This document shows positions 22,801 through 53,709 of a stretch of DNA of 64,000 bases, in pieces. Location: IMG/VR virus record IMGVR_UViG_3300044591_000410, positions 4,159 to 68,158 of that record. The stretch is one strand, 5' to 3'. The position numbers and the translations under genes are program-made. How positions within the stretch are numbered: position 1 is the stretch's first letter; the number at the start of each line of letters is the position of its first letter. The notes under the pieces are model-generated. The model did no database searches, was not told where the DNA came from, and saw only the letters and a program-made list of their open reading frames with translations. The DNA is from a virus.

Positions 22801-25800
22801 GCTATGGGCGTTAACAGTATTACCGAACAGCTCCGTCGAATGGATCCTAGAAAGGCAGCTCTCATTGAACAACGAGTTGTGAGGGATATCCGGGAAGGTG
22901 CTACACAGTTATCAGACACTGTAGGACTAAACGAAGCTGAGATAAACCTAGCAAACGACTTGATTACCAATACCAGAAAGTTCTTTACTTTCTTTGGAGA
23001 TCAAGCTAAAAAACTAGGAAAAGACTTTGAAGATAGCTTTACTTATGTTCCTCAAATGCTAACAAGAAAACTTGACTCAACCCAGCAAGCTAAACTAGCA
23101 CAGTTGGGATATGAAGCAGCTGTTAGAAAGATAATGAAAGAAGGTAGCATTCCTTGGTCTGAACTAGAAAGACTAGGCCAGATTGAAAGAGGAACAGACG
23201 GTTCTATTATTAATATCCCAGAAACAAGTTTATTCTATAAAACAGACGATGCTGGTAAAGCATTGCCGCTTTCTGAGATGGTAGCTCAAATGCCTAAAAC
23301 AATGGATGAACTTCGTCTTTTAGAAGCTCAGAGAAGAAAGCTTAATAATGAACTGGCTGAGTTACCAGAAGATCTCCGTCAGATACTAGAAGCACCTAAC
23401 ACAGCACGGGTTAATAAAGAAAAGCTTAAGAGAGCACTAGACGAACAAAAGAACAGAGTTAAAAAACTGTTTGACAGAGCTGTGGGTGTAAACGGTGGTT
23501 TTAATATCTTTGATATTAATGCTCTTGCTAAGAGCTTATATACAATGAAGAAGTATGCCACTGAACTTGGCGAGTTAGATTATGTAGCTTATGCCGATGA
23601 TCTATTAAAGAAACTAGATGATAATGGTTTGGCTATAAATGAAAAGCCCACTTCACCTAGAGATCATATAATTAATGGTCAAGATGATTTAATTAAAGCA
23701 GGATCTAAAGTAGAAGACTTAGAGTTAAAGGTAGTTGATACTTTTGCCCCTGAAATTACACTAACTCGTACCGCTCCAGATGGTACTAAAACTGTTGAAA
23801 AACTTAGTGAAGGTTTTGTAGTAAAGCAATGGGTTGATAAAACCAAAGCTCCCGGACTGGACTTTGAAAACCCAGCAATGAGTTTACAAACTGTATTATT
23901 AAACCGAGCTGGTTCTGTGGCAGAAAAACAAGCAGCAGCTAATGCTGGATTCCAGTATACTATTTCCAATATTGTTTCTCGTTTAGAAGATATGACTGGA
24001 ACATCTGCTGGTGATAGTGTTAGAATTGGTTTTAATATTGAAGATTTAAGAACAGGTTTTATTACAGAAGAACATATCTTTAATTGGATGCGTTCTGAAA
24101 AATTTAAATCTGAACTAAACCAAATAAGACAACTTACAAAAAACACGGGACTAAACGATGTTGAACTTGGTTTACTATTAATTAATAAGTATGTAGGAGA
24201 AGCTAAAGAATATCAGTTAAAGAGTATTAAACAATTAGCTGAACAACGAGCAACAACCTTATTAGAAAACAGTCCTTATGCGAAATCACTACAACTAGAA
24301 AAAACACGCATAAACCAAGAATTGTTACAAATAGAAGAAGCTATAAAGCTAACTTCTAGTGCTGATGAACAAAAACTTACCAACCTTACTAAACAAAAAA
24401 TAAAGTTATTAGTAGAAAAAGAAAACTTATCTAAAGAACTAAAAGAAATGGAACAGGCTATTTCTTTAAAAGTATCTTCACAAATTGAAAGAACTTTAGC
24501 TAATGTTTCTGAAGATATTAATACTTTATTCTTAAAATCTAGAAGAGCTGGTAAACCTTTAGATAATTTAGATACTCTAACAGTATTTGATAAGAGACTT
24601 AATAAAGTTCTAGCGGATGCTTTAAATATAGAAAATCCTAATTTTGTTTCGTGGAAACCAGTAGATAGTGAAGCTTTAAGCAGCCAAGTTAAAACCAGAG
24701 TTGTTACAGATTTAGAACAAACAACTAAACTATACCAACAGAAAACAAACTTAGTTCTTGAAAGAATAAAACTACAAAAAGAAATAAGCAACACCACACC
24801 GCCTAGTTTGATAGACGCAATTGAAAAGGCATACAAAGCAGCTGGTGTTGATGATATTGAAAAAGCTGTTAAAACTTTTGCTAAAAATAATGATAGAATT
24901 TCTAAGCTTGTAAAGACAATTAAGCAAAAGAAAAAACAATTATCAGCTCTTGCAGACGATACCTCTGAAGAAGCTGGTGTATTGACTAATGACATCGCTA
25001 AACTAGAAGAAACTCTAGAAAAATCTTTAAACAAAGTTAGAAAAACTGTTATGTCAGAAAGAGCTAAAGTAGCCACAGAAGTAAAAAAGAAGGCTATTAA
25101 ACAGCTTGAAAAAGACAAAGCAAAAGCACAGGAAAGACTTACTAAAGTTGAAGAAGCTATAGGTGACTTAAGTAATCAGATTAAAGCACTAGACAAGAAA
25201 TCTGAAGTAAGTGTGTACGGTACATTGTTTAATAAACTTAGTGGTGAAGAACAAGAAGCTTTATTAGAGTATATTAAACTAACTAAGGGTACAGCAGTTG
25301 GTCTAGAGTCTTTAGTATTTACAGAACAACTAGGTAAAGAACTAGAAAACTTATTTGAATTTGGTGGCCCAGAAGCTTTAGCTAAATGGGGAATATCTCC
25401 AGAAAACTTTGTAGATAATAAACTTAATGCCGCTGGTCGTTTAGAATACTTACAATACTTAGCAAAAGAAATGCCCGGTGAAAAGGGCGCTGAACTTAAA
25501 GCTAGTCGTGCTAAGTTTATTGAAGAATCTACAAGCATGGAAAAACCTAAGATAAACTTAGAAACAGATCCTAAGGCTGTAATTGAAAGAGCTAAGTTAA
25601 GAAATAAAGCAATTCAAGAAGCAAGAGAATTAGAAAACAAAATTGTACAAAGTATTGAAGATCTTGATGCAGACTATGAATTAGCTGCTGCATTAGATAA
25701 AGTAAAAGAAGCTTTAGAACTAGCTTCTACAAACACATCCTTAACAGAAGCCGTTAAAGTAAGTATCAGCACTGAACTTGATAATGCCAAAGCTGTTATA

Positions 25801-28800
25801 CAAATACTTAGTGATTTAGATCCACGGTTTGAAACAGCTTTAGGATATGTAAAAAAACAGCTAGACTCAATTGATTTTACAAATGCAAGTAAAACAGGTG
25901 ATCTGCTTGTAAAAGTAAATAAAGCAATACAAGCTTTAAGTGTAGAAGATTACCCAATTAAAGAAGCTTTAAGAACTTTCCAAAGCTCAGAACTTAAAAG
26001 ACTACAAGAAGAGTATGGTGTTAATATAGCTAACTATATTGAAACAGCGGATAAGATTAGTGATTTGCAAGACTCCTTGTATAATGAGTTAGCTAACATT
26101 GAACTTGGACCTGAAGCTTTAATTAACCCAGCAGATCCTAATAGCATGACTTATAGACAACTGTTTGATATGCTATATAACCTTAAGCATAACCAATCAA
26201 ATGCTAGAAAAGCTATTAGAGATCATCTAGGTTCACTGCCGTTTGATACAGCAGACAAAGCAGATAAACTAAAAGCACTGTTTACTAAACTAGACGAACT
26301 GGAAGCAGTTGAACAAGGTTTAATTAAAGCTAACCTAGAAGGCCATTCTTTAAAGTTTGGTGAAGCAGTTTCTAACTGGGTAGATGAAACAAGAACAGCA
26401 TTTGATGTATTTAAAACAGGCGTTAATAAAACCGAAAGTACTCGTTTCTTTAACCTAATGAAAGAAGGTTTAAATACAGGGTACTTAATTAGCAGAGTAA
26501 GAGGAGAAGACGGTAAGTATTTATACCGTGTTCTAGATCTTTACCACCTTACCGATCAACGGTATGGAAGCATTGTTCCGACCGAAGTACATGCTGACTT
26601 TGACAAGATTGTCAGTATTATTCAAGTGCGGAAACAAACAAGATCTAACTTAACTTTTGATAAAGTCCTACAACGAAAGAAGAAACTACTTAGCGAAAAC
26701 GAAGCTATTTACGGACCAACTTTTGAATATCTTGAATCATTTAAAACCATTGTTGATGGTGCTTCTGTATTTGATATTAACTATGGTGCTTTCTTTAATG
26801 GGCCAGAGTTAATACGAAAAGAAGTAGAAAGCCTAAGAAAAACAATACAAGATTCTTTAGAGGTTGTAAACACTGGTCGCAAAGAAGTTATTGCAGCTAT
26901 TAATGATATTCAAAAAGCAGGACGAAGCGAAGCGAAGGTTGCTAACCTTTCTCCTGAACTACGAAGTTTAATGGCAGAAGCTCTAAAACGACAAAGAGAA
27001 TATCAAGAAACTATTAGTAAACTTCTTAAAGAAGGCTTTGTTGGAACAAACCCACAACAAGCAAAAGCTTTACAATCTGTCTTTGATAGAATTCAAAAGC
27101 TTAGCAAGTTAAGTATAGAGCTTTACGAAGGTAAGATTCCTACTTCTTATGAAGTTCAAAAAGCTGTAGCAAAAGCACCAGAACTAAAAGCCTTTAAGAA
27201 CCGAGCCACAGCTAATAGACGGCGACTCTTAAAGAAAGAACTAGAAGAGAATGCAGATATTCTTGACTCTGAAATTAATACAGCAAATGAAGTTAAAGAA
27301 CTAAACCGTCTTGGTAAACTTAGTAAGAGTATCAAACGAGAAATGCGTAGGGTTGAAAACGGAGAATCTTCTGAGTTGTTTATTAAAACACCAGAAGGAT
27401 ATGTGATTCCAGACCCCAATCTTACAATGGATAGATTGGTAACCCTTCTTAACCTTAGCGACACCAGACCTGAATACGCTGTGATTAGAGAAACAGCTAA
27501 TGATTTCTTGCGACATGTTATTTATAAGAGACTGGTTAAGCAAAACAAATTGGCTGGCAGAGAGGTTAATTTCCGGTATGCAGACGCAATTGGAAGAGAT
27601 GTAGACCAAATCGAAGATATAGTTGGTACTGTCTTTGCATCTTTCTTAGATTTTGAAAGAAAGATTGCAGTAAATGAACCTATCTTAATAAGCGCTGGTT
27701 TATCGGTTAAAACCAAAGATTTATTAGAAAACGCTCAAAGATTGTTTGATACTTACAAAGCATCAAAAGATAGAGCAGAACAGCAAGAGTTATTACGACA
27801 GATCTATAAGATAGAGGGAGATCTGGATACAGTCTTACTACAAAGAAAACTTAAACGGGATGATACTGGAAAAGTTATTCGCAAGAAGGACGGAACCCCA
27901 GTTATTGAAACCAGCTTTGTTAAGTATGAGCCAGTTGATAAGAAAATCAAAACCAACTATCTCGTATCTGCTGCCATTAAAAAATATGTAGCGCAGTCCT
28001 TTAAGAAAAATACAAATGTTGAAAGATATGAAAAAGCTCTTTCTGAAGGTCTTGTTGAAAACAATGTTGGGTTGCGTTCATCCAACGGAGACTATATTGA
28101 CCCAACCAGAGCAGAAGAACAGTTTGAAATAAACCAACTTCTATCTATGTTTGCATTTGATAGAGACTCGTTTAATCAGTACTTACTGAGAACAGGTAAA
28201 CTAAACACGCTAGGGGTAATGCCAAATAACCTTACAAATATTGGAGTTATCCAAAGAGGTTATTCATTCTTTATAGAAGAACTTCTTCGTGTTACTAGTT
28301 TAGATGTACCTGAAGTTACTATAGGTAACAAGAAATATCAAATACTAACAAAACCAGAGGAACGAACTTTGCTTGGACGAAGAGAAGTATCTCGTCTAAA
28401 TACGAATGAGTTCCTGCGATATATGGTAGACAGAATGGCGCTAGAGTACCGAACCTTAGCTAAGGATTCTACAGTACCCTCTATAATTGGTAACCTGTCT
28501 TTAGAATACTCTGATAAACAACTTAAAGAAATATTCTCAAGAGAACTTATTAAAGAGTATCTGCGAGTTGTTAGAAAGGATATAAGAAAAGTTGTTGGTG
28601 ATACCTTTATTGACCTAGACGAAGTTCCTGCTGGTCGTTTGTTAAATCGGTTAGAAGAAGAAAGAAGAAGTATTCTAAAGAACTTTAGTGATGAAGTTCG
28701 TAAGAACAGCTCAAGCAAAGATTGGGTAGATGTTACAAAGCCTCGTTTAGAAGCAGCTAAGAACAAGAAACTAGCTGCTCTAGATGCTCAGATTGCTAGT

Positions 28801-31800
28801 GCTGAAAAAAAGATTGGAAGACTTCCAGCTTTAATTCGGACACTAGAAGAAGAACTATTTGAAGAATCCTTAAAACCAACAATTAAGAATTATAAAACAA
28901 TTCCAATTGACAGAGACATTACTGGAGTTGTAACAAAAACAAATAGAGGTGGTGCTAAGTCAACAAGGTCATTAACAGATCTTATAGGTAAGTACTTAAA
29001 CGGAACTTACTCTGAAAGTATTTTTGTACGCGATATACAGTTTGCTGCAAGACAATCTGATTTATTAAAAGCATTCAATAATTATGTAAAGAGAAATTAT
29101 GATGTTGATACATTTGAAGAATATGTAATTAAAAAAGCTAAAGATAATACAGATGAATATGCAGATGGTTTAACTAAAGGTATTGAACTACGGCAAGAAG
29201 CACCATACGCTATTGAAAAGATTGATGAAGCCGAACAAGTAATGCTCGGTATTATTTCAGAAAACTTCAAAGGCCAAACCGAAAAAGTATACTTAGGATT
29301 AGCTGAAACAGATAAAGATACTGCTCTACTGTTCCTAACTACTGAACTAGCAGAACTTCAGAAGAACCTGACAAAGATGGGTGCATCTCAAGAAAAGCTG
29401 GAAAAGGTTACTAAGGTCCAGATTAAAGCACTTAGCGAACTGCTGACGCAATACTCTGATAGTCCTCTAGCTGCTAAGGCAGAATACAATGCTTTCCCCT
29501 TATTAAATGAACTGCGAAAAGTTTCTAATGAGGCAGTAACCAATGTATCTGAAGGAAGCCCAGCTTACCTAATAGCATCTAAGCTATCTATTGAAGATGT
29601 AAACGCATACAAACGAGTAGCTGGTTCTCTTCTATTAAATGAAAATGTTAAAGATGCTTCTAAGATATTACCTGAACAAAGCATAATTAATATTCTAAAT
29701 GATCTAGAATCATTTGGTTTTATTCAGAAACTTTCTACTTCTCCATTTAAAACTATTGAAGATTTAGTAGCACAAAACGGAAGCGTAGCTTCAATGTTTG
29801 AACTAACTACTCAGTCTTTAAATAACAGTCTTAATAAAGTTCTAGACTTTAGCCCAGAAAGTTTAATTCTTGGAAATGCTGTTAGATCTTCTACTGCCCA
29901 GCACAGAATTATGGGAACACTACGCAGTGCTACACTAAAGAAAAAACTAGCTAGCGTAGCTCCTGATTCAGATGAAGCAAGAAGAATAACAGATGAGATA
30001 AACAATTTCCTAAGCTCTGTTGAAAAAACAGAAGCAGAAGAAATATTCCAAGCAATGGATAGATTGTTCCTTTTACAGCGAATGCAAAAAAACATTGGCA
30101 AGCTAAAGCCAGAAGATGTTGTGTCAGTTGAAGCAAGCGCTGGCGTTTCTAAAGAAGATATCATTTCATTCTTGAAACGAAAAGAAGCAGAAAATGTTTT
30201 AGAAATTGATGCTTTAAGTGCTAAGATTAGTACTTATAAAGCAAATAATTCAACTAAGATTATTCCAAAAGTTATGGAAAAAGAAGTTGGTAAGCTTCCA
30301 GATGTGAGTGTAGAACCTTGGAAGAATGGTAAGCTTGTTTCTGTAGCAGATCAAATTATGGATGCTCTAAAAGGTAATACTAAACATTATACTGGAAAGC
30401 ATGCAGGAGCTACCAAGACAGGGCTACAAGAAGATATGGAAGCATGGGCTGCTGGTATGAACGGTGAGCCTTATACCCCCACAACCAGTGGAACTGTGCC
30501 TATACTAGAGTCGGCTAGAGCCAAGTCTTATGACGGTAGTGGTAAACCATACTTTAATAACGACGATCTGGTTGATCCTCAAAACGCTGAACTGGCAAGT
30601 TATCTGTCTAATGACTTAGGCGCTATAACTCAGAAGTACGCCAAAACAGCGGGAGCTAGTCTATCAGCTGATGTAGCATTGAGGGATAAGATTAAGCAGA
30701 AGTATGGTATTGATCTACCAAAGAACTTTGGTTGGTCTGATTGGATGGATGTTCTTCGGGATTATGTGGAAGGATTAAAACGAAATCCTTTAGTAGACTT
30801 TGAAGGAAGAGCAATTAAGATGAGCGATAAAGAAATTAATCATCTTAAAGAAATTATTGATGGCATGTCCAGAATTCGCAGAGAGTTTACTGGTGAGGTT
30901 GATTCAACAGAGCTTCCGCCTCACGGTATTAGACAAGCAGCTAAGATGGGCAAGAATGCTTTACTGTCTACCGTTGGTCCTTTCATGGGTACTGCGGTAC
31001 TGCTGACCGAACTACCTTTCAGTTTGTTCCGAAAGAACGGTTCTCTAAAGTCCTTCTTAAAGGGATTAGAAGTGTTATCTACTGGAAGCAGCCGAAGGAG
31101 ATTGGAGCATACTGCATTTGCTTTTGAAAAATTAAACCGAGGTTTCCACTCTAAGTTTGGTGGAGAAGAATTAATTAATAATGAGATTACTTGGTTTAAT
31201 AGACTGAAAGAAAACTTTAGAAACATGTTCTCCCCAGACGAAAGAATGTTACGAGAGTCTGGGGCTGGTAGACTATGGGATCATTTGGATAACTTCTTAC
31301 AACACAAAGCAGCACTAAGCATGGAGCTGGGTGGCCTACCTCACTTTGTGGAAAGAGTTTTAGCTGTAGCTTTAGAAAAAGAAAAGACTAATATATTTGG
31401 TCTACGGTCTAAGATTAGAAATGCCTTATCCCTTATGAACACTCCTGAATTCAGGGCAGTAGCAGAACAGGCTGCTAGAGGTGATAAGAAAGCTCAGGCT
31501 GAAATTGTAAAACGATTTACTGGTATAGCCAGAGAGTCTGGAGTACCTATTGAAACTCTGTCTTACATTCGTATGGCTAAGATTGATACTCCTGAAGAAA
31601 TGGATAGAATTATCAGAATCATGGAAGTAGGTTCAGATGGTAATGGATCATTTGATGGTAATGTTGCAATTTCTAAACTGTACAAACAGTCTAACTCTAG
31701 AGTTGCAAAGAACATTGAAATGCCAATGTTTGAAGAATCAGCAGCTAAGCTGGCTTACTTCTTAGAACTATCCGCCAGAGAAGCATCTCCCGAACCATTT

Positions 31801-32664
31801 GGTTTGGGTAAGATTACTTATAAGTTTGAAAAGAATTCTTTGGGTGCTCAGCTACTATTCCTAGGTAGCTACCCCTTAGCTGCATTTAATACTTATAGTA
31901 TTCGTAATGGCACAAGCAAGACCGCAGCAGCAATGATTGCACTATCGCTGGGTGTCTTTGGATTTGAAATCTTTGCTAAGAGAATGAGAGATACTATGCG
32001 GGGTAAGAGAAACATGGAATCCAACTACGATGAGTATAGGGTTTCTCCGCTGGCTTACTTCCTGAGGGATGCCTCATATGCTCAGCTTGGTGGTCACCTA
32101 GATGCTGCCCTTGGCCCTATGTTTGTCATGGCAGGCAAGTCTATGGCTCCACCCGGTACAAGTAAGGATTTCAAGTATCAGGCTCCAGAGTTCGGGGTAA
32201 TGCCTCAGGCAGCTTATGTCAATGACCTAGCCCGTCAGACATACCAAGCTGTTAATGGGGTAGTAACTAAGGGCGATGGAAAGGAAGCGATAGACCTAGC
32301 TGGCCGGGTTGCTATAGATATGTCGGTAGGTAAAGGTGTAGTGGATACTGCTGGTATGATGCTTAACCTTATGGAAGCTACTAAGGCAGCAGCCATAAAT
32401 CAACAACTACATCAGTATGGTCCAGTGCATACACCTACGGAAGAGGCATTCCATGATTATTTAATGCAGGGATTAATCTCTCATTATGTTTATGGAAGTA
32501 CTAATATTCCAGAATTTAAGATGCCACCCGAACCTATGGTTAAACAGCCCAAACCTACAATTAAACCAGTCAAGGTAGGTTCTCAATTTAAGAAATTAAA
32601 TATAGTAGACCAACTAAAGGGATCTACTGGAGTTTCTTCCGCTTTGGCAGAATCTTTAGAATAA
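19861..32664 (+). CDS. Giant internal virion protein, gp16-like (4267 aa)
   Basis: Last gene of the ejection-protein block; Gly/Ala hydrophobic segments near the N-terminus; long coiled coils; C-terminal region resembling gp16 relatives ('YLSNDL..I..KY', 'LGAQLLFLGSYP'). Confidence 0.7.
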   Translation: MTQYSTLGQSNSFYSNFGYFQPLEETDYQNVINKSINDNINVSLAGELQPNIFSTGDYSLKLTKGGPVNPTAVDLANSVLLDKTQEWMGGIFGRQPAVIDAAYYGLFGEKASGWKYVPFVDSWSKVEQERRRVDEQFVANKQKEIDTLLSERYKEQAPLVVEALQRNLGVNWKETFAKGANNKNAYAEQVYRFLLDETRKTTNKNALYSSLLNLKSNDKPIWNWTYANILSDYDVLASTALTLGVESLLTGSAVTLSAAASSATASAARATGIRLGATQGSEGVIRLAQTIGKTTGSPNWWSLFKSDYTLSTRLPAATRNAQRVLTQALQSGKITQDQIKVLQRLRPDLFTTAATGETIIANPFSIATNARKYLQFRGLEIAGTGQKVAINSVNRSKLVDALSKVALTTDDILLVGKSSSHLNYLFKVGKSGAVQGALDGATNAVFMGKERADQMLMAENIDIPSYNLSEVISSAALFGAFGFTLGIGFGAITSPVRTGLSALTAIDGRASLGTPNAKRGLLQYVGPDRMTESEFNLRNALASVVGKQAALAAEVNANSRVAIVRDIVKLLTGSEEIGVRLVDPKFLEANNLTIEEVSGLITFITQELIGKSSKSSQIGSIPAGLMDDIIAAYAQWKRANPTAAVNAFEIKAVAGEDFLKRLTEHGVNTNNSGKPSVLKTQTIDEINQEVSFLETVEAVEKLGASVVDGKIKVLKRRKQILEAKELRRKELPDLKKQLEELNTKDKTPEVEADIKKLEEKIKRYERQAGEPLKDNNPNAVIIRSSSTSVRTLQINGFDISTSRSGLLLSMWLDTVNKIHALAGQNTAEARKAVNQLRQEAKELEEQIDSLYRKPEEKSREEIRKNWFDEQFATIKNDPTKLAQFRQALGAALSQSSATTGSRAVSMNWLSQLRFESGLGELYTRLASYGTGTADLMYSVSDVLFHTMEMLDSSQLFSYASLADMGSSLSVKEAVDRGYRLAMGVNSITEQLRRMDPRKAALIEQRVVRDIREGATQLSDTVGLNEAEINLANDLITNTRKFFTFFGDQAKKLGKDFEDSFTYVPQMLTRKLDSTQQAKLAQLGYEAAVRKIMKEGSIPWSELERLGQIERGTDGSIINIPETSLFYKTDDAGKALPLSEMVAQMPKTMDELRLLEAQRRKLNNELAELPEDLRQILEAPNTARVNKEKLKRALDEQKNRVKKLFDRAVGVNGGFNIFDINALAKSLYTMKKYATELGELDYVAYADDLLKKLDDNGLAINEKPTSPRDHIINGQDDLIKAGSKVEDLELKVVDTFAPEITLTRTAPDGTKTVEKLSEGFVVKQWVDKTKAPGLDFENPAMSLQTVLLNRAGSVAEKQAAANAGFQYTISNIVSRLEDMTGTSAGDSVRIGFNIEDLRTGFITEEHIFNWMRSEKFKSELNQIRQLTKNTGLNDVELGLLLINKYVGEAKEYQLKSIKQLAEQRATTLLENSPYAKSLQLEKTRINQELLQIEEAIKLTSSADEQKLTNLTKQKIKLLVEKENLSKELKEMEQAISLKVSSQIERTLANVSEDINTLFLKSRRAGKPLDNLDTLTVFDKRLNKVLADALNIENPNFVSWKPVDSEALSSQVKTRVVTDLEQTTKLYQQKTNLVLERIKLQKEISNTTPPSLIDAIEKAYKAAGVDDIEKAVKTFAKNNDRISKLVKTIKQKKKQLSALADDTSEEAGVLTNDIAKLEETLEKSLNKVRKTVMSERAKVATEVKKKAIKQLEKDKAKAQERLTKVEEAIGDLSNQIKALDKKSEVSVYGTLFNKLSGEEQEALLEYIKLTKGTAVGLESLVFTEQLGKELENLFEFGGPEALAKWGISPENFVDNKLNAAGRLEYLQYLAKEMPGEKGAELKASRAKFIEESTSMEKPKINLETDPKAVIERAKLRNKAIQEARELENKIVQSIEDLDADYELAAALDKVKEALELASTNTSLTEAVKVSISTELDNAKAVIQILSDLDPRFETALGYVKKQLDSIDFTNASKTGDLLVKVNKAIQALSVEDYPIKEALRTFQSSELKRLQEEYGVNIANYIETADKISDLQDSLYNELANIELGPEALINPADPNSMTYRQLFDMLYNLKHNQSNARKAIRDHLGSLPFDTADKADKLKALFTKLDELEAVEQGLIKANLEGHSLKFGEAVSNWVDETRTAFDVFKTGVNKTESTRFFNLMKEGLNTGYLISRVRGEDGKYLYRVLDLYHLTDQRYGSIVPTEVHADFDKIVSIIQVRKQTRSNLTFDKVLQRKKKLLSENEAIYGPTFEYLESFKTIVDGASVFDINYGAFFNGPELIRKEVESLRKTIQDSLEVVNTGRKEVIAAINDIQKAGRSEAKVANLSPELRSLMAEALKRQREYQETISKLLKEGFVGTNPQQAKALQSVFDRIQKLSKLSIELYEGKIPTSYEVQKAVAKAPELKAFKNRATANRRRLLKKELEENADILDSEINTANEVKELNRLGKLSKSIKREMRRVENGESSELFIKTPEGYVIPDPNLTMDRLVTLLNLSDTRPEYAVIRETANDFLRHVIYKRLVKQNKLAGREVNFRYADAIGRDVDQIEDIVGTVFASFLDFERKIAVNEPILISAGLSVKTKDLLENAQRLFDTYKASKDRAEQQELLRQIYKIEGDLDTVLLQRKLKRDDTGKVIRKKDGTPVIETSFVKYEPVDKKIKTNYLVSAAIKKYVAQSFKKNTNVERYEKALSEGLVENNVGLRSSNGDYIDPTRAEEQFEINQLLSMFAFDRDSFNQYLLRTGKLNTLGVMPNNLTNIGVIQRGYSFFIEELLRVTSLDVPEVTIGNKKYQILTKPEERTLLGRREVSRLNTNEFLRYMVDRMALEYRTLAKDSTVPSIIGNLSLEYSDKQLKEIFSRELIKEYLRVVRKDIRKVVGDTFIDLDEVPAGRLLNRLEEERRSILKNFSDEVRKNSSSKDWVDVTKPRLEAAKNKKLAALDAQIASAEKKIGRLPALIRTLEEELFEESLKPTIKNYKTIPIDRDITGVVTKTNRGGAKSTRSLTDLIGKYLNGTYSESIFVRDIQFAARQSDLLKAFNNYVKRNYDVDTFEEYVIKKAKDNTDEYADGLTKGIELRQEAPYAIEKIDEAEQVMLGIISENFKGQTEKVYLGLAETDKDTALLFLTTELAELQKNLTKMGASQEKLEKVTKVQIKALSELLTQYSDSPLAAKAEYNAFPLLNELRKVSNEAVTNVSEGSPAYLIASKLSIEDVNAYKRVAGSLLLNENVKDASKILPEQSIINILNDLESFGFIQKLSTSPFKTIEDLVAQNGSVASMFELTTQSLNNSLNKVLDFSPESLILGNAVRSSTAQHRIMGTLRSATLKKKLASVAPDSDEARRITDEINNFLSSVEKTEAEEIFQAMDRLFLLQRMQKNIGKLKPEDVVSVEASAGVSKEDIISFLKRKEAENVLEIDALSAKISTYKANNSTKIIPKVMEKEVGKLPDVSVEPWKNGKLVSVADQIMDALKGNTKHYTGKHAGATKTGLQEDMEAWAAGMNGEPYTPTTSGTVPILESARAKSYDGSGKPYFNNDDLVDPQNAELASYLSNDLGAITQKYAKTAGASLSADVALRDKIKQKYGIDLPKNFGWSDWMDVLRDYVEGLKRNPLVDFEGRAIKMSDKEINHLKEIIDGMSRIRREFTGEVDSTELPPHGIRQAAKMGKNALLSTVGPFMGTAVLLTELPFSLFRKNGSLKSFLKGLEVLSTGSSRRRLEHTAFAFEKLNRGFHSKFGGEELINNEITWFNRLKENFRNMFSPDERMLRESGAGRLWDHLDNFLQHKAALSMELGGLPHFVERVLAVALEKEKTNIFGLRSKIRNALSLMNTPEFRAVAEQAARGDKKAQAEIVKRFTGIARESGVPIETLSYIRMAKIDTPEEMDRIIRIMEVGSDGNGSFDGNVAISKLYKQSNSRVAKNIEMPMFEESAAKLAYFLELSAREASPEPFGLGKITYKFEKNSLGAQLLFLGSYPLAAFNTYSIRNGTSKTAAAMIALSLGVFGFEIFAKRMRDTMRGKRNMESNYDEYRVSPLAYFLRDASYAQLGGHLDAALGPMFVMAGKSMAPPGTSKDFKYQAPEFGVMPQAAYVNDLARQTYQAVNGVVTKGDGKEAIDLAGRVAIDMSVGKGVVDTAGMMLNLMEATKAAAINQQLHQYGPVHTPTEEAFHDYLMQGLISHYVYGSTNIPEFKMPPEPMVKQPKPTIKPVKVGSQFKKLNIVDQLKGSTGVSSALAESLE

Positions 32665-32686: not shown

Positions 32687-32843
32687 AACAACCCAAGGGG
32701 TATACTAGGTATATCCCTTGGGTTGTACCATAGTTGTCCTATAGATTTAATATATTATAATATTATATACTATAGGGGAATAGCTTAGGAGTAGTATAGG
32801 AGTCCCCTAAGGGGGAATCCCTACTCAACCAAGCTATCCCCTA
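32676..32843. repeat. Two long inverted repeats flanking an AT-rich tract (end-of-genome / origin / packaging region)
   Basis: ACAACCCAAGGGGTATAC-TAG-GTATATCCCTTGGGTTGT; TAGGGG-ATAGCTT-GAGTAG...CTACTC-AAGCTAT-CCCCTA; tttaatatattataatattatata between them. Confidence 0.7.
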
Positions 32844-33160
32844 GGAATCTACCCCGGTAATTGCGGGGTTGGTCCCTAGTGGATATCCTTGGTATCTGTC
32901 ATTATGGCGGTAGAAATCGACTTAGGGGTCGTGGATTTACAACGGGGTATTTGACATAGTGTGGCCGCGCACACCCCCCGCCACCCCCCGTCGATGTCCC
33001 CTAGGGGCATATGCCGGGTCAATCCGAAGCAATCCGAACAATTTGCCTAGGATTCCCATGCTCCGAGTTCATGGGGTATATCTATTGGAATCAGAGGAGT
33101 TTCCCATCAGCGTGATGGTATCCCCTGCTTCTTTCCTAGTGTTCTCGAAAGGAACAAGCG

Positions 33161-33427
33161 ATGTCCAACAAGGATATGGCTGCGGCACTCGCCGCTATCG
33201 TCGCCCTGCTCTCGCAGCAGGGCATCACCGTCCCCACCACCAAGCCCGTGAAGGCGCGCAAGGCCAAGGCGAAGGCCGAGCCGAAGGCCAAGCGCAAGAA
33301 GGGCGCAACCCCCGCTCAACGCGCTCATTACAACTCCATGAAGACCAGCCACCCTTGCCCGTTCCGTCCCGGAATGGTCGAGCGTGAAGCCTACCGCGCA
33401 GCGAAGGCTGCGGGGCTGATTGGCTGA
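33161..33427 (+). CDS. First early gene, small basic K/A-rich protein
   Basis: GAAAGGA SD; GC-rich codons; histone-like 'KARKAKAKAEPKAKRKK'. Confidence 0.8.
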   Translation: MSNKDMAAALAAIVALLSQQGITVPTTKPVKARKAKAKAEPKAKRKKGATPAQRAHYNSMKTSHPCPFRPGMVEREAYRAAKAAGLIG

Positions 33428-33430
33428 TCG

Positions 33431-33485
33431 GGCGACAACTTTGGAGTACCCACCCTACGGGGTGGGACTCTCCTAGGCTGTTGCC
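33431..33485 (+). ncRNA. Conserved cis RNA hairpin motif, copy 1 (cUACGg tetraloop)
   Basis: Core GGAGTA-CCCACC-CTACGG-GGTGGG-ACTCTCC; homologous to 35413-35463 with compensatory changes. Confidence 0.7.
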
Positions 33486-33493
33486 AAGGCTGT

Positions 33494-33523
33494 GCCACAG
33501 CAGAACTGTGGCTGTTTCTTTCT
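33494..33523 (+). terminator. Intrinsic terminator-like hairpin
   Basis: GCCACAG-CAGAA-CTGTGGC followed by TGTTTCTTTCT. Confidence 0.5.
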
Positions 33524-33537
33524 GAAAGGTTTCAAAC

Positions 33538-33654
33538 ATGGGAATCATTCTTGGTACTTTGGCTTTGTTGGGTCTTGCAAGTTTCTTGGCATTTGCAGTC
33601 ATGTGGGACACCATGACCCCGAGCGACCGCCGCAAGGCGGGATTCAAGGACTAA
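33538..33654 (+). CDS. 38-aa early membrane peptide (not in ORF track)
   Basis: GAAAGG SD; MGIILGTLALLGLASFLAFAVMWDTMTPSDRRKAGFKD. Confidence 0.65.
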   Translation: MGIILGTLALLGLASFLAFAVMWDTMTPSDRRKAGFKD

Positions 33655-33660
33655 CATTTC

Positions 33661-33696
33661 ACTCAAGGTAAACCTAACGGTTTGCCTTGGGTTTCT
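33661..33696 (+). other. Intergenic hairpin (terminator or RNase III-type processing site)
   Basis: ACTCAAGGTAAACC-TAAC-GGTTTGCCTTGGGT followed by TTCT. Confidence 0.55.
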
Positions 33697-33763
33697 AGGT
33701 AGCACTTTGCTACCAGCAGCGTCACGGCTGAACCGTGATATTCCTTACAGAAAGGAGACATCC

Positions 33764-34141
33764 ATGAAGGATGTCATCATCGTGACCCGCCATGCGGGTC
33801 TAGTCATTGTCCTCGCAGAGGACTACGGAATTGCGGGGCCAGTCTTGGCCCACGTTACTGCCGCAGATGTACGCGGCAAGGCCGTCGTTGGAGTGCTTCC
33901 GCTGCATTTGGCTGCGGAAGCGAAGTCGGTGACCGAGGTTACCCTGAATCTCCCCCCCGAACTGCGGGGGCAAGAACTCACCATTGAGCAGGTGCGGCAG
34001 CATATGAAGGGACTCCGCACCTATGTGGTGCGAAGCCTTGAAGCCTTCAACCTCAACAACGAAGAGGAGTGGAGGTCGGGGTATGGTGGAAGCATGGGGT
34101 GGGGCTCGATCCCCGACCCCATCGGGAGGAAGTCGAAGTGA
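33764..34141 (+). CDS. Csx16 (Cas_VVA1548)-like protein, candidate cyclic-oligoadenylate ring nuclease / anti-CRISPR
   Basis: 'IIVTRHAG', 'AHV', 'VVGVLPLHLAA', 'LNLPPELRGQELT.E' and 'LRTYVV' follow the Csx16 pattern SRHxG..H..VIGTLPxHLAA..LDLP..LRGxELS; GAAAGGAG SD. Confidence 0.8.
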   Translation: MKDVIIVTRHAGLVIVLAEDYGIAGPVLAHVTAADVRGKAVVGVLPLHLAAEAKSVTEVTLNLPPELRGQELTIEQVRQHMKGLRTYVVRSLEAFNLNNEEEWRSGYGGSMGWGSIPDPIGRKSK

Positions 34142-34452
34142 AGAAGCATCAGCCTTGGGGCAAGGACATCGTTATCATCAAGGTTTACGACCTTGATGCC
34201 GTGCTCCTCTTCGACCGTGCTGTAATCGAAGAGGTAGCAAGGGAAGAGGCGGAGAAGATCGCCTCGACCCTGTTCCCCGGATACAAGGTGCAATGGTGTA
34301 CCCCGTCCGGAAAGACCCTTGGTCAGGTGACTGCCGCACCTGCACCGCAACACAAGTTGCCTGTTTGCCCTTTCTGTGGGCAACTCCTTGTCACCATGCG
34401 TGACGAGGTTGGAGCAAAGTGCGCCATGTGTTTCAGTTGGATCCACGGATGA
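34138..34452 (+). CDS. Early protein with C-terminal Zn ribbon
   Basis: GTG start with GGAGG SD; CPFC...CAMC. Confidence 0.65.
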   Translation: MKKHQPWGKDIVIIKVYDLDAVLLFDRAVIEEVAREEAEKIASTLFPGYKVQWCTPSGKTLGQVTAAPAPQHKLPVCPFCGQLLVTMRDEVGAKCAMCFSWIHG

Positions 34453-34508
34453 TAGCGATTCGTGGACGCAGCACCTCTCGCGCGTAAACATACGCGCGTT
34501 GGTATATG

Positions 34509-34597
34509 GGCTTGATTTGTCCTAGTGGACAACGGCCCACGGCCTCTGCATACGCGCATATGTGTATGCTTATGGCGGCTTGATTTGTCCTAGTGGA
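34509..34597 (+). repeat. Perfect 21-bp direct repeat, candidate promoter or operator
   Basis: GGCTTGATTTGTCCTAGTGGA at 34509-34529 and 34577-34597 in a non-coding gap. Confidence 0.85.
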
Positions 34598-34700
34598 GAT
34601 GCTCACCCCTGCATAGGCGAAGGCTTATGTGGGGGTTTCACCATGCATCAGCGTAGGTGTATGGTTGTTTGGTTTCTTTCTTTATGAAAGGAAGGGGCAA

Positions 34701-35408
34701 ATGAACATCAGCCCCGATATCGTCCAGCAGATCCTCCTCTCCCTCTTGCAGAGTCAGGCTGCTTCTGCCACCACCACCGTGGCTCCCGCTCCTGTGGCTA
34801 CGGCCTCCCCTTCGTGGGTTGACGCAGTCACCGCTGCCTTTCCTGCCATCGTTGGCAGCAACGGCAAGCGCGGGTCGATGAACATCGCGAAGAATCCTTG
34901 CTTCACGGCATCGACAAAGGAAGTTCACGAAGGTGTGAACAACGAGATCGCCAACGGCAAGCCGGGGATTTGGTGCGCCGAGGCTTGCTACCGTGCTGCC
35001 AAGAAGGGCATTGCGGTCAGCGAGTACCTCAAGGCCAAGACTCCGGCTCCTGCCAAGGCTGCAACCCCTTCTCCTACCGTTACGGTGGCGACCATTCCGC
35101 CTGAACTGGCGGCAATGGCCGAGCAGATGGGCTTCACCTTGGTTCCCAAGGCTGATGCTTCCGTGGCTCCCCCTGTCAAGCGCATGAAGGGGCAGGCCCG
35201 TTTGACCTGCCTTCAGACTGCGTTGGCTGCGGCCAAGGCGGGCGAGCGCGGCGCTGCCAAGGTGGAGTTGGTGCAGGTCGGACTCCTCAAGGAGTCTGAC
35301 AAGATGCGTCTTGGCAAGATGATCCCGCTGATCGAAGCGGAGATTGCCAAGATGACCACGGTCAGCAAGGCTCCTCACGCGGGAGTCCCCAACCTGACGG
35401 TGGCCTGA
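34701..35408 (+). CDS. Early A/P/K-rich protein, probable paralogue of 33161-33427
   Basis: GAAAGGAAGG SD; shares SM..PC(P)F..(R/K)PG..EA(C)YRAAK..G motif with the first early gene. Confidence 0.8.
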   Translation: MNISPDIVQQILLSLLQSQAASATTTVAPAPVATASPSWVDAVTAAFPAIVGSNGKRGSMNIAKNPCFTASTKEVHEGVNNEIANGKPGIWCAEACYRAAKKGIAVSEYLKAKTPAPAKAATPSPTVTVATIPPELAAMAEQMGFTLVPKADASVAPPVKRMKGQARLTCLQTALAAAKAGERGAAKVELVQVGLLKESDKMRLGKMIPLIEAEIAKMTTVSKAPHAGVPNLTVA

Positions 35409-35412
35409 ACAT

Positions 35413-35463
35413 CCCGAGTTTCGGAGTATCCCTTCTACGGAAGGGAACTCTCCCAAACTTGGG
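35413..35463 (+). ncRNA. Conserved cis RNA hairpin motif, copy 2 (cUACGg tetraloop)
   Basis: Core GGAGTA-TCCCTT-CTACGG-AAGGGA-ACTCTCC; followed by hairpin TACTAGTAAC-ATACGG-GTTACTAGTA (35465-35490). Confidence 0.7.
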
Positions 35464-35523
35464 GTACTAGTAACATACGGGTTACTAGTATAAGTTAGCA
35501 TCTTCACTAGAAAGGAGAATCAC

Positions 35524-37557
35524 ATGAATCAGAAACTGCTTGAGCAGCAGTTTGTGGGTTGTGTGAACAACGCAGAAGTTGTGATTGCTGGTTTCGCAGA
35601 AGCCCTTGGTAACTTGCGGTTTAGCCGCAAGCCTGCATGGTTCAAGTTCGTGCAGCAGAATACCAACTGGGTGGCGAACGCTACGGTGTATGCCGTCGTT
35701 CGCAATGTTTCGGAACGAGCAACCACCGAAGTTCACGCTGTCATTGCAGACCTTGCGTTTGCAATCCAGCGGGACTGGCAGGTGGATCGTAACGATGCGT
35801 TGACTTGGGCATGGAACATCGTTCACTTGGCTGAACAAGCCGGGTGGGTGACCTTGTACAAGACTTCGGAAATGACCCTCGTCAAGATGACCTCACGCTT
35901 TGCGTTTCAGCTGTATGAGAACAATGCGTGGGGCATGGCGGGTTGTTTCCGTCCACCGATGGTGGAACGACCACGGCCACACCGTGACAGTCGCCCCGGA
36001 GGATACCACAACCCACAGATGCGGCGTGGTATTAGCCACGGATCATGGAAGGAACTTGCGAGTGCGCCTCGCATGATTCTCACCATGAATCGCATGATGT
36101 TCACGAAGTGGCATATCTCGCAAGAGATGTTGTCCATTGCGAAGGAAGTCTTTGCACTTCCTGAAGTGATCGTGGATCATCGTCGTGATCGGTATGGACA
36201 CGACACCACGCTGGCAATGGCCGAGCAGTTCAGCGGTGTGGAGTTCTACAATCCCACCTACGCTGATGTTAGCGGTCGCATTTATTATGAGTGTGACTTG
36301 CTGTCACCGCAGGGCAATGACCTTGCGCGTGGTTTGCTGCATGGAACAGACCATGCCCTTACTGATAAGGGTTGGTTCTGGCTTGCGGTGCATGTGGCAA
36401 ACTCTTTCAGCGGCATCGGTGGCGTTGGTAAACTTGACAAGACTCCTTACAAGGATCGTGTCAAGTGGACACACAAGAACTCCGATACGCTCTGCCTCGT
36501 TGCCGAAGACCCCATGCGTTACATGCATGTGTGGTTCAACGGCATCGGGAAGGGAGCGGGATCATTCCAAGCACTTGCTGCGCTGCTTGCTTGGCGACGA
36601 GCCAAGGACACCGGACGATGCTGTTTGCATGTGAGGTTGGATCAGACAACCTCCAACTACGGCATCAAGGGTGGGCTGCTGCGAGATCAGCAACTGTGCG
36701 AGTTGACCAACATGGTTCCCTCGTCCGAGGTGCAGGATATGCACAGCGTGACGGCTACAAACCTTATGGGTTTGTTGGCTGATTCCGATTATTCGGATTT
36801 CACAACCATGATTGCTGGGACACCGGACAAGCCTAACCGCAAGTTCGTCAAGTCACCCAGCATGGTCAGCGGCTACGGTGGTACGACCCGTGGCATTGCA
36901 CAGTCGTTGTTTGGAAAGCGTGAGTGGGCTTTCCACGACAACAAGTGGAAGAAGGTTGCCGAAGAAGGCAGCATCCCCGACCTTGTGTCTGGTGACGATC
37001 CTCGCCATCAGTTCAAGGTGGCAATGGATATTGCTTCCATGTGTAAGGAAGCAGTAGAAATCACCGCTCCCGGTGCGTTCAAGGTCATGCGTTATCTCAA
37101 GGAGGTTGTCAAGGTTGCCCGTGAGAAGAAGATGGAGAACATTATGTGGTATTCTCCATCAGGCAAACTCATTGTGCTTCATCCTCGTAAGCGGGGTGAG
37201 CAGATGATCGTGGCATCATCCGAGTTTGGTGGTGCTTCACTCAAGTGGCATCCTTGGACTGATGAAACCAACTGGCGTAAGATGGCTACGGCCATCTCTC
37301 CACGATGGATTCAACCCATCGACGCTTCCCTTCTTCACATTGCAGGCAGTATGTTCCGGCATGAGTTTGCCGGGGTGCATGACTGCATCCAATGTCACCC
37401 CAATCAGATGGGGAAGTTTCTTGTGTACATGAGGAAGGCAATGTACATGATTATGGAATCCAATCCTCTTGTCAAGTTCTGTGAGCAGTTCGGCATTACT
37501 GTTGAGCAGGGCGATTGGGATACCAAGGATTGCCTCAAGGCTAATCCTTGGCACTAA
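35524..37557 (+). CDS. Divergent T7-type single-subunit RNA polymerase (RNAP-1, 677 aa)
   Basis: PMV..P...GGY; DVSGRIY..LSPQGNDLARGLL; WLAVHVAN; motif A LDQTTS; motif B RKFVKSPSMVSGYG; ISPRWIQPIDAS; motif C VHDC. Confidence 0.9.
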   Translation: MNQKLLEQQFVGCVNNAEVVIAGFAEALGNLRFSRKPAWFKFVQQNTNWVANATVYAVVRNVSERATTEVHAVIADLAFAIQRDWQVDRNDALTWAWNIVHLAEQAGWVTLYKTSEMTLVKMTSRFAFQLYENNAWGMAGCFRPPMVERPRPHRDSRPGGYHNPQMRRGISHGSWKELASAPRMILTMNRMMFTKWHISQEMLSIAKEVFALPEVIVDHRRDRYGHDTTLAMAEQFSGVEFYNPTYADVSGRIYYECDLLSPQGNDLARGLLHGTDHALTDKGWFWLAVHVANSFSGIGGVGKLDKTPYKDRVKWTHKNSDTLCLVAEDPMRYMHVWFNGIGKGAGSFQALAALLAWRRAKDTGRCCLHVRLDQTTSNYGIKGGLLRDQQLCELTNMVPSSEVQDMHSVTATNLMGLLADSDYSDFTTMIAGTPDKPNRKFVKSPSMVSGYGGTTRGIAQSLFGKREWAFHDNKWKKVAEEGSIPDLVSGDDPRHQFKVAMDIASMCKEAVEITAPGAFKVMRYLKEVVKVAREKKMENIMWYSPSGKLIVLHPRKRGEQMIVASSEFGGASLKWHPWTDETNWRKMATAISPRWIQPIDASLLHIAGSMFRHEFAGVHDCIQCHPNQMGKFLVYMRKAMYMIMESNPLVKFCEQFGITVEQGDWDTKDCLKANPWH

Positions 37558-37572
37558 TATGCTAGGAAAGGT

Positions 37573-40266: not shown

Positions 40267-40273
40267 TACCTTT

Positions 40274-40346
40274 GCCCCTATAGCTCAGTTGGTAGAGCAG
40301 TAGACTTTTAATCTATCGGTCGTAGGTTCGATCCCTACTGGGGGCA
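40274..40346 (+). tRNA. tRNA-Lys(UUU)
   Basis: GCCCCTA/TGGGGGC acceptor, GCTC/GAGC D-stem, CT-TTT-AA loop, GTAGG-TTCGATC-CCTAC; no encoded CCA. Confidence 0.95.
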
Positions 40347-40351
40347 TTCAC

Positions 40352-40425
40352 AGAAGGGTGGCTGAAATAGATAGAGCGCATGCCTTATAAGCGTGAATAT
40401 GTGGGTGCAACTCCCGCCCCTTCTA
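40352..40425 (+). tRNA. tRNA-Ile(UAU)
   Basis: AGAAGGG/CCCTTCT acceptor, CATGC-CT-TAT-AA-GCGTG anticodon arm, atypical T-loop TGCAACT. Confidence 0.8.
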
Positions 40426-40436
40426 TTAAGTGCCAT

Positions 40437-40510
40437 ATTCCCGTAGCTCAACTGGATAGAGCGTGGCACTTCTAATGCTAAGGTTAGTGGTTCAAGTCCA
40501 CTCGGGAATG
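40437..40510 (+). tRNA. tRNA-Arg(UCU)
   Basis: ATTCCCG/CGGGAAT acceptor, TGGCA-CT-TCT-AA-TGCTA anticodon arm, AGTGG-TTCAAGT-CCACT. Confidence 0.95.
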
Positions 40511-40525
40511 TTCTAAAGGAGATCC

Positions 40526-53607: not shown

Positions 53608-53612
53608 GGTAT

Positions 53613-53694
53613 GGCTCCGTGGCGGAACAGGCAGACGCAGTGGACTTAAAATCCGCCGCCTAACGGCATGGGGGTTCGATTCCCCCCGGAGCTA
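53613..53694 (+). tRNA. tRNA-Leu(UAA)
   Basis: GGCTCCG/CGGAGCT acceptor, GTGGA-CT-TAA-AA-TCCGC anticodon arm, long variable arm, GGGGG-TTCGATT-CCCCC. Confidence 0.95.
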
Positions 53695-53709
53695 TTGAAA
53701 GGAGCTTTT

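Follow-up and report, generated by a model that had tools for sequence, protein, structure and literature searches.

The processing of T7 early mRNA by RNase III is a textbook case. The T7 early region has five short spacers, which we take to be the RNase III sites R0.3, R0.5, R1, R1.1 and R1.3 (Dunn & Studier 1983; the T7 record carries no annotation of the sites). All five fold as two-tier hairpins with an internal loop, and one of them lies before gene 1. When the spacers are aligned, conserved flanks (around CTCAAGG and CCTTTATGAT) enclose a variable apex, and the lower stem is variable too. Here we analyze an RNA hairpin that occurs twice in the early-gene spacers of an uncultivated T7-like phage, in a stretch of 64,000 nucleotides (nt) of virus DNA (the window; bases 4159-68158 of the 68,158-bp record IMGVR_UViG_3300044591_000410), and compare it with these and other phage elements.

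The boxB element of lambda is a short hairpin that is read via its loop, and the put element of HK022 is a fixed two-hairpin unit. PeSL cassettes, located between early genes of T4-type phages, reportedly consist of a promoter plus a stem-loop (Arbiol et al. 2010). The promoters of the N4 virion RNA polymerase are described as short template-strand DNA hairpins with a conserved loop centred at -11 (PMC4496689). According to two papers, substrates of E. coli RNase III extend over about two helical turns (about 20-22 bp), in which coaxial stacks are allowed, and internal loops can confine the cut to a single strand, so that the 3' hairpins left behind guard against exonucleases (PMC3867540, PMC1540722). 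One of them gives the T7 early precursor a length of roughly 7000 nt and five processing signals (PMC3867540).

A covarying hairpin in early-region spacers

An earlier note, made from the letters of the window alone, had proposed that two 31-nt cores represent an undescribed cis-acting RNA motif. Rereading the window returned both cores exactly as they had been given, GGAGTA-CCCACC-CTACGG-GGTGGG-ACTCTCC at 33443-33473 and GGAGTA-TCCCTT-CTACGG-AAGGGA-ACTCTCC at 35423-35453. Four of the six upper-stem pairs are changed between the copies and every pair is retained; the flanks and the cUACGg loop are unchanged. The lower stems, also said to pair, do so in both copies: RNA folding gave hairpins of about 55 nt, each with the core as its middle, at energies of -35.6 kcal/mol for copy 1 (z -5.7 vs shuffles) and -33.8 kcal/mol for copy 2 (z -6.25), and the - strand of both copies folded 5-6 kcal/mol worse than the + strand. 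From foot to tip, the hairpin consists of an 11-bp (11-position) lower stem, a 1x1 mismatch, a 4-bp GGAG:CUCC helix, a 2x3 internal loop (U,A opposite A,C,U in the window copies), a 7-bp upper stem and a UACG tetraloop. The pattern GGAGTA-N6-CTACGG-N6-ACTCTCC, with up to three mismatches allowed, matched the window twice, both times on the + strand, compared with 0.00 matches in 100 shuffles, and these two were the only matches across the whole virus record.

The surroundings of the two copies were also largely as the note had them. The stop codons of the upstream open reading frames (ORFs; gpA and gpE, described below) are at 33425-33427 and 35406-35408, about 2-4 nt ahead of the hairpin foot. 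The ORF downstream of copy 2 (35524-37557) encodes a T7-type single-subunit RNA polymerase (PF00940, 1.7e-30; phrog_414), which we call RNAP-1. Second hairpins were indeed present after both copies, at 33494-33512 (then TGTTTCTTTC) and at 35464-35491; what did not hold is that they belong to the element as a fixed part. The hairpins are as follows, with scores from the covariance model R1 that is introduced below.

33431..33485, + strand: element copy 1, full hairpin; core 33443-33473; R1 score 70.7 bits
35411..35465, + strand: element copy 2, full hairpin; core 35423-35453; directly upstream of RNAP-1; R1 score 71.8 bits
33494..33522, + strand: second hairpin after copy 1, with a U-rich tail and the look of an intrinsic terminator, just ahead of the ribosome-binding site of the next gene
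35464..35491, + strand: second hairpin after copy 2, with an 11-bp stem and no U tract

Relatives were collected through the polymerase. A protein search found RNAP-1 homologues at 74%, 37% and 32% identity, and their alignment retrieved 20 metagenome loci and 2 IMG/VR loci. The loose pattern GGAGT, 5-34 bases, ACTCTCC, applied to the retrieved loci and the window, yielded 27 distinct copies, from which R1 was built. Searching 250 kb with R1 returned 34 copies at 44-76 bits, and no other match rose above noise; echoes on the reverse strand reached only 13-28 bits, and one copy is cut off where its contig ends. All 34 copies are on the coding strand, in intergenic spacers of the early region. 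Copies were found in 15 of the 22 RNAP-1-related loci, at RNAP-1 identities from 99% down to 38%, with two or three per phage and up to three within about 1 kb of one operon. Among the seven loci with no copy, three (L016, L018 and L019) extend only 0.9-1.3 kb upstream of the polymerase gene, and the others are L020 (35% identity) and L021, L022 and L024 (20-28%).

The 12 bases GGAGU and ACUCUCC are invariant in all 27 distinct copies, the selection pattern itself having required them, and the base that follows GGAGU is A in 10 copies and C in 17. All 27 also have the 2x3 loop (U,A/C opposite A,C,U). The upper stem, which varies in length from 7 to 12 bp, is 99.5% paired across the copies with double changes at all 7 pairs, and the lower stem has 11 covarying pairs. 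Taking all pairs together, 88% of the pair cells were paired compared with 70% in shuffles, double (compensatory) changes were found at 18 of the 22 pairs, and the observed covariation score was reached by none of 500 shuffles. Pairing fell to 40-58% when the partner was slid by 1-3 columns. The terminal loop is UACG in most copies and otherwise UGCG, GUAA, AUGG, AUU or UUU, so that UNCG tetraloops make up the majority. Full-hairpin energies range from -21 to -37 kcal/mol, and wobbles number 41 for G.U/U.G vs 12 for A.C/C.A.

One locus, L017, carries at 310-370 a degenerate copy that was overlooked by both the pattern and the model. The A-U pair of GGAG:CUCC has been lost there on both sides, giving GGG:CCC, and the loop bases U and ACU are retained. 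This paired deletion supports the GGAG:CUCC register.

These results demonstrate that the two hairpins are genuine copies of a conserved RNA element of an uncultivated freshwater T7-like phage group. Homologues carrying compensatory changes occur in related phages, which bears out the claim of a cis-acting RNA with covariation. The element acts as RNA of the coding (+) strand, because G.U wobbles are in excess, the tetraloops are of RNA type, the orientation is single and the + strand folds better. The part that is recognised is the mid-helix with the internal loop rather than the tip, because the flanks are invariant while the terminal loop and the upper and lower stems vary.

The claim that the element is undescribed in Rfam also stands, since no Rfam 15 family matched it. 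In the window, only 4 tRNAs passed the gathering thresholds, and nothing meaningful overlapped the elements at E values up to 10; the sole overlap was a sub-threshold RNAI match at 33379-33474 (18.5 bits vs 47 for gathering, E 2.9). In IMG/VR, the exact 31-nt pattern had no match beyond this genome, the pattern with degenerate positions matched one other contig, which is the same as L023, and a locus search with a single protein had no match. Bacterial and archaeal genomes gave 12 pattern matches, none of which folds like the element (best 20 bits vs 44-75 for real copies), so that they contain neither a host mimic nor a prophage copy of this loop type. As far as these scans reach, the element is confined to one clade of freshwater T7-like phages. 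Full-text literature on T7 RNase III sites and on two-polymerase phages did not bring up the element or the phage group; the motif sequence itself was not searched, and we make no claim of its absence from print. K-turns, the sarcin-ricin loop, a CRISPR-repeat mimic, integron attC sites and small ribozymes were set aside by their consensus features, the element showing none of what they would require, be it GA/AG pairs, identical repeats, an integrase with outer-end core sites, or a catalytic core.

We also analyzed how the copies are spaced within their operons. The core starts 6-38 nt past the upstream stop codon, and 6-25 nt past it in most copies, so that the stop mostly falls within the 5' arm or just ahead of it. 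From the core to the next start codon there are about 40-70 nt. Downstream of the 27 distinct copies we found a terminator-like hairpin in 7, another hairpin in about a dozen and a weak fold (weaker than -10 kcal/mol) in 8, which leaves 20 copies with no terminator. The second hairpin of copy 2 is kept in relatives at 74-99% identity, where one A-U pair has changed to G-C and one to G.U.

When its 3' half is isolated (CUCC onward), the element forms a small hairpin of 4-7 bp that begins 1-4 nt from the first base. This alternative hairpin takes up the 3' arm of the lower stem and is mutually exclusive with the full hairpin. It reached -7.7 kcal/mol or lower in 16 of 18 distinct copies, compared with 9% of random 26-nt windows from the same regions (Mann-Whitney p 7e-10); the mean z of the 3'-half fold was -2.9 vs shuffles, and its mean energy was -8.0 kcal/mol compared with -4.1 kcal/mol for the mirrored 5' half. 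The sequences of the alternative hairpins differ between lineages. RNAalifold returned no consensus for them because they vary in size and register, and a per-sequence test was used instead. The window copies fold as follows.

33472..33489, + strand: alternative 3' hairpin of copy 1, in which the 3' half (CUCC onward) joins bases immediately downstream; weak alone (-7.9 kcal/mol, z -1.3)
35451..35464, + strand: alternative 3' hairpin of copy 2, UCCCA-AACU-UGGGG (-5.4 kcal/mol, z -2.0)

Possible functions of the element

The earlier note had offered three functions, namely a protein-binding or an antitermination element, by analogy with lambda boxB or HK022 put, and an RNase III site as in T7 early mRNA. 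The last fits best, because the phage is T7-like, the element lies in early spacers including the one before the polymerase, and in the T7 sites, too, conserved flanks enclose an apex that varies. Both boxB and put are poor analogies, because the terminal loop is unconserved, the second hairpin is neither conserved nor constant, and up to three copies lie close together.

Compared with the T7 sites, the element has the same setting, namely early-gene spacers of a T7-like phage with one copy before the RNA polymerase gene, and the same build, namely hairpins in two tiers that contain an internal loop and span about two helical turns, forming a within-genome family in which conserved flanks surround a variable apex above a variable lower stem. 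However, it has no sequence or covariance-model similarity to those sites. It also differs in having two interruptions, the 1x1 mismatch and the 2x3 loop, that bracket an invariant 4-bp helix, in keeping its 12 bases invariant over far more divergent phages, and in a 3' half with an alternative hairpin of its own; its cleavage is inferred. We regard the element as an analogue of the T7 sites and not a homologue, the likeness being one of kind and not of descent. With lambda nut and HK022 put it shares that these are cis-acting RNA hairpins of phage early transcripts, and some copies lie just upstream of terminator-like hairpins. The conserved loop of boxB is missing, the loop and the upper stem being variable, and so is the two-stem-loop unit of put, since the second hairpin is not the same from copy to copy and 8 of the 27 have only a weak one; several closely spaced copies per operon are also unlike either system. 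PeSLs resemble the element as repeated spacer elements among small early genes, with gene content between the repeats that differs in close relatives, but no promoter is evident in the element and its conserved part is an RNA internal loop.

The best-supported reading, which we judge an even call, is that the element serves in an early polycistronic transcript as a signal of the host RNase III type, for processing and stability between cistrons. Its duplex of 11 + 4 + 7 bp plus the mismatches comes to about two turns, the length of RNase III substrates; the 2x3 loop provides the internal loop of such sites in every copy; and the position, between cistrons in early spacers on the same strand as the genes, is also theirs. 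The proposed course of events is that a quasi-continuous helix of about 22 bp, broken by the invariant internal loop, would form in the early transcript of this T7-like podophage, and a double-strand-specific endoribonuclease, most likely host RNase III, would cut at or beside that loop. This would leave the very stable upper hairpin at the 3' end of the upstream cistron, where it would block 3' exonucleases; at the start of the downstream cistron, the CUCC half would refold as the small 5'-terminal hairpin. Each early cistron, the RNAP-1 message included, would in this way become a separate, protected mRNA, as at T7 R0.3 to R1.3.

Parts of the early region are found in 21 runs on record as RNA, mostly river metatranscriptomes, of which four were examined, all as assembled contigs. 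The contigs that carry RNAP-1 begin at 35467, 35473, 35473 and 35486 in the four runs, just past the foot of copy 2, and true ends are not readable from such assemblies; one of these contigs extends to the polymerase stop codon. In one run a contig stops a few bases past 33429, where copy 1 has its foot. Loose ends are listed neither there nor at the RNAP-1 contig starts. RNAP-1 contigs traverse the second hairpin, gpE contigs traverse two stable hairpins at 34605-34665, and DNA assemblies traverse the element without a break. Neither element hairpin is covered by any RNA contig of the four runs; contig gaps prove nothing and were not used as evidence. One RNA contig has an Illumina adapter joined at 35301. 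The contig edges give a weak hint of RNA ends at the element.

Several points weigh against a processing signal. The gpE RNA contigs stop at 35278-35339, which is 70-170 nt short of copy 2, and strain variation beside the element could likewise break contigs. Cleavage was not observed; assembled contigs are unable to show true ends. There is no sequence or model similarity to the T7 sites, R1 having no match on the T7 early region (L025). RNase III requires no fixed sequence, and 12 bases that are invariant across phages with RNAP-1 at 38-41% identity exceed what this enzyme alone would need; a rigid core of this kind leaves room for a specific protein partner, which may include an N-like antiterminator. 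The element also resembles a bulge-helix-bulge arrangement, which reportedly lets E. coli RNase III bind without cutting (PMC1540722).

A sequence-specific protein site would explain the rigid core, if an early phage or host protein read the GGAG:CUCC helix with the internal loop and controlled translation, stability or antitermination in the manner of lambda N and nut, cutting not being primary. We consider this unlikely. Invariant bases amid variable surroundings, here in pattern-selected copies, are typical of a specific protein or tertiary contact; gpA, the first early protein, has a basic Lys/Ala/Arg stretch, and its gene is followed by a copy with a terminator-like hairpin, such as is found downstream of 7 of the 27 copies. 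The remaining 20, however, are not followed by a terminator, the terminal loop that boxB-type sites use is unconserved, and two or three copies within about 1 kb of an operon are unlike a processive antiterminator. Candidate binding proteins have no family assignment, and tblastn found gpA in the 74-99% relatives alone; the 38-41% clade, in which the element persists, gave no gpA match. Less probable still is an uncleaved, translation-coupled switch or stabiliser, in which the terminating ribosome opens the 5' arm, the 3' arm pairs downstream, and the two folds set the decay or translation of the neighbouring cistrons with no dedicated endonuclease. The upstream stop lies mostly between the inside of the 5' arm (core gap 6-9 nt) and 13 nt ahead of the arm, so that the terminating ribosome must usually melt the lower stem, and the 3' hairpin that excludes the lower stem occurs in nearly all distinct copies; other early spacers carry plain long hairpins with no conserved flanks, which suggests that stabilising structures are needed more generally. 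However, neither a pure stabiliser nor a pure switch would explain the invariant internal-loop sequence, and the full hairpin (-21 to -37 kcal/mol) is far stabler than the alternative (about -8 kcal/mol) and would re-form once the ribosome leaves. A further possibility, which we put forward tentatively and hold to be improbable, is a clade-specific RNA module read by sequence, in place of a generic RNase III site: a dedicated phage or host factor would read the invariant loop-helix-loop, the terminating ribosome would toggle the two folds and thereby couple cistron processing to translation, and the module might also serve as a joint for swapping early accessory (anti-defence) cassettes.

It is very improbable that the element works as DNA, either as an N4-like hairpin promoter for a phage RNA polymerase or as a recombination site bounding gene cassettes. 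The N4 early region has three hairpin promoters with conserved and covarying bases (PMC4496689), and copy number and place are similar here, in the early region of a podophage with T7-type polymerases. An ORF of 4267 amino acids (aa) of virion type lies just upstream of the early region, and the RNA contigs start just past the hairpin, with none covering it. However, the N4 hairpin is on the template strand, whereas the wobble bias marks the non-template strand here; the element is about 55 nt long; its loops are variable and of the RNA-stable UNCG type, in place of a conserved purine-rich 3-nt DNA loop; and the giant ORF has no polymerase similarity, no virion polymerase domain having been found. 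As to recombination, relatives at 98-99% identity differ in the genes between copies, and L004 has an extra ORF bracketed by two copies, but no integrase or recombinase family was found among the window ORFs, and any repeated spacer can give rise to cassette exchange as a side effect.

The early region and its phage

All genes of the window are on the + strand. They include a T7-like set, comprising nozzle, T7 tail-fibre N-domain, T7-type terminase, portal, scaffold-like protein, capsid, T7-type primase-helicase and family A DNA polymerase, together with a weak, sub-threshold match to a gp14-type internal protein; the phage is T7-like. No RNase III or double-stranded-RNA-binding domain was found among the window ORFs scanned. 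The genome encodes two T7-type RNA polymerases, RNAP-1 and a second one at 43802-46282 (RNAP-2). Both are only 23-28% identical to those of cultured phages, and the early region has no DNA match in public phage records, so no annotated relative was usable. RNAP-1 has no PF14700, the N-terminal domain family carried by many more distant homologues, and it defines a small clade known from metagenomes only.

Both element copies lie in a GC-rich block that begins after the 4267-aa ORF and a non-coding stretch of 496 nt and closes with RNAP-1. Outside this block, GC content is 30-47% (1-kb windows). By position and content, the block corresponds to the T7 early region; its main features are listed here.

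32800..37560, + strand: GC-rich early region holding both copies; 51-67% GC (200-nt windows, to 36.9 kb), 45% by 37.5 kb
33161..33427, + strand: early ORF gpA, 88 aa, with the Lys/Ala/Arg basic stretch; stop 3 nt ahead of copy 1
33538..33654, + strand: early ORF gpB, 38 aa, hydrophobic; first gene past copy 1
34701..35408, + strand: early ORF gpE, 235 aa, no family; stop 2-3 nt ahead of copy 2
35524..37557, + strand: RNAP-1, T7-type single-subunit RNA polymerase, 677 aa; final gene of the GC-rich block

Homologues of gpA precede an element copy in L004, L005, L006, L008 and L011. The gpE protein had tblastn matches in 16 of the 22 loci and adjoins RNAP-1 upstream wherever it was detected; as a candidate partner of the element it was set aside, having no Pfam or PHROG match and no usable Atlas match.

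The codon usage of the block is also distinct. In the early genes (32800-37560), AAA occurs at 2.4 per 1000 codons, and ATA, AGA and TTA are never used, compared with 33, 12, 22 and 27 per 1000 for AAA, ATA, AGA and TTA in 12 other large genes sampled; GC content at third codon positions (GC3) is 0.66 vs 0.29 in the same comparison. The phage tRNA genes (40273-40511 and 53612-53695) read exactly these codons (Lys-UUU, Ile-UAU, Arg-UCU and Leu-UAA). The early genes thus appear to be tuned to a GC-rich host ahead of phage tRNA synthesis. The GC-rich block is also found in the relatives L006, L011, L012 and L023.

Gene content between the element copies varies among close relatives. A 125-aa early ORF at 33764-34141 matches the CRISPR-associated family Cas_VVA1548 (PF09652, 3e-17). 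By tblastn, this ORF and the next one (34138-34452, with paired Cys motifs) were found in none of the fetched loci, and because they are missing even from the 98-99% relatives, the Cas_VVA1548-like ORF looks like a swappable accessory gene and possibly an anti-defence gene. Phages with RNAP-1 98-99% identical have core spacings of 1980, 1625 and 1294 nt in the comparison of the window with L004 and L006 (intervals compared: window 33443-34700, L004 8275-8649, L006 8606-9165). A third element copy is present in L004 and L005, where two copies bracket a 76-aa ORF, and one L004 junction resembles a recombinant of two window spacers.

The spacer before gpE holds other repeated structures. A second hairpin type, with a nearly perfect stem of 12-14 bp and a GNRA loop, is found at 34605-34636, followed by a shorter CGUAGG hairpin at 34640-34665. 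The GNRA-loop type is also found in L012 (9903-9931), and L013-L019 and L023 have it at the corresponding positions. Among the 38-41% relatives its stem covaries, and it fills the spacer directly before RNAP-1, which is the place of copy 2 in the window. The same spacer in the window has a perfect 21-nt direct repeat, GGCTTGATTTGTCCTAGTGGA, at 34509-34529 and 34577-34597, 68 nt apart, and a related site, CCTAGTGGA, is present near 32868-32885 within the long non-coding stretch. In three runs, RNA contigs have their start at 34541-34544, which is 12-15 nt past the first repeat. The repeats are candidate promoters or processing sites; they showed no sigma-70 fit, and no phage promoter consensus emerged from the window spacers.

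At the upstream border of the block, 24 nt past the stop codon of the giant ORF, there is a near-perfect 18-bp inverted repeat with a 3-nt loop (32688-32726). In the AT-rich stretch that follows lies the region's best sigma-70-like match (TTGTCC, 16 nt, TATAAT; 32734-32761). The late operon probably ends here, with an early promoter after it. The giant ORF itself (19861-32664, 4267 aa) has no qualifying Pfam match (one GAT-domain match was far below cut-off) and no PHROG or PDB-sequence match, and it is preceded by the weak gp14-type match and by a 1205-aa ORF; from its position, it is a putative internal (ejected) virion protein. Its C-terminal part is kept in relatives, at 42-99% over full length and at 39% over a 61-aa fragment in L023. 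We also considered it as a hidden virion polymerase and rejected the idea, as Pfam, PHROGs, a PDB sequence search and BLASTP against RNAP-2 all gave no match.

Meaning for early gene expression

The element is a cleanly delimited, strongly covarying RNA family whose 12-base core is unusually rigid and which has an alternative fold built in. To our knowledge, few comparable families of processing signals have been defined outside coliphages. If the element is a processing signal, the T7 strategy of cutting an early transcript into hairpin-capped messages would have arisen here with an unrelated sequence solution, and the element would be a compact natural part with which to insulate cistrons. 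If, instead, the core is read by a specific factor, the two would make a new RNA-protein pair. The element also marks the boundaries of a hypervariable early region with candidate anti-defence genes, and it aids the annotation of such phages.

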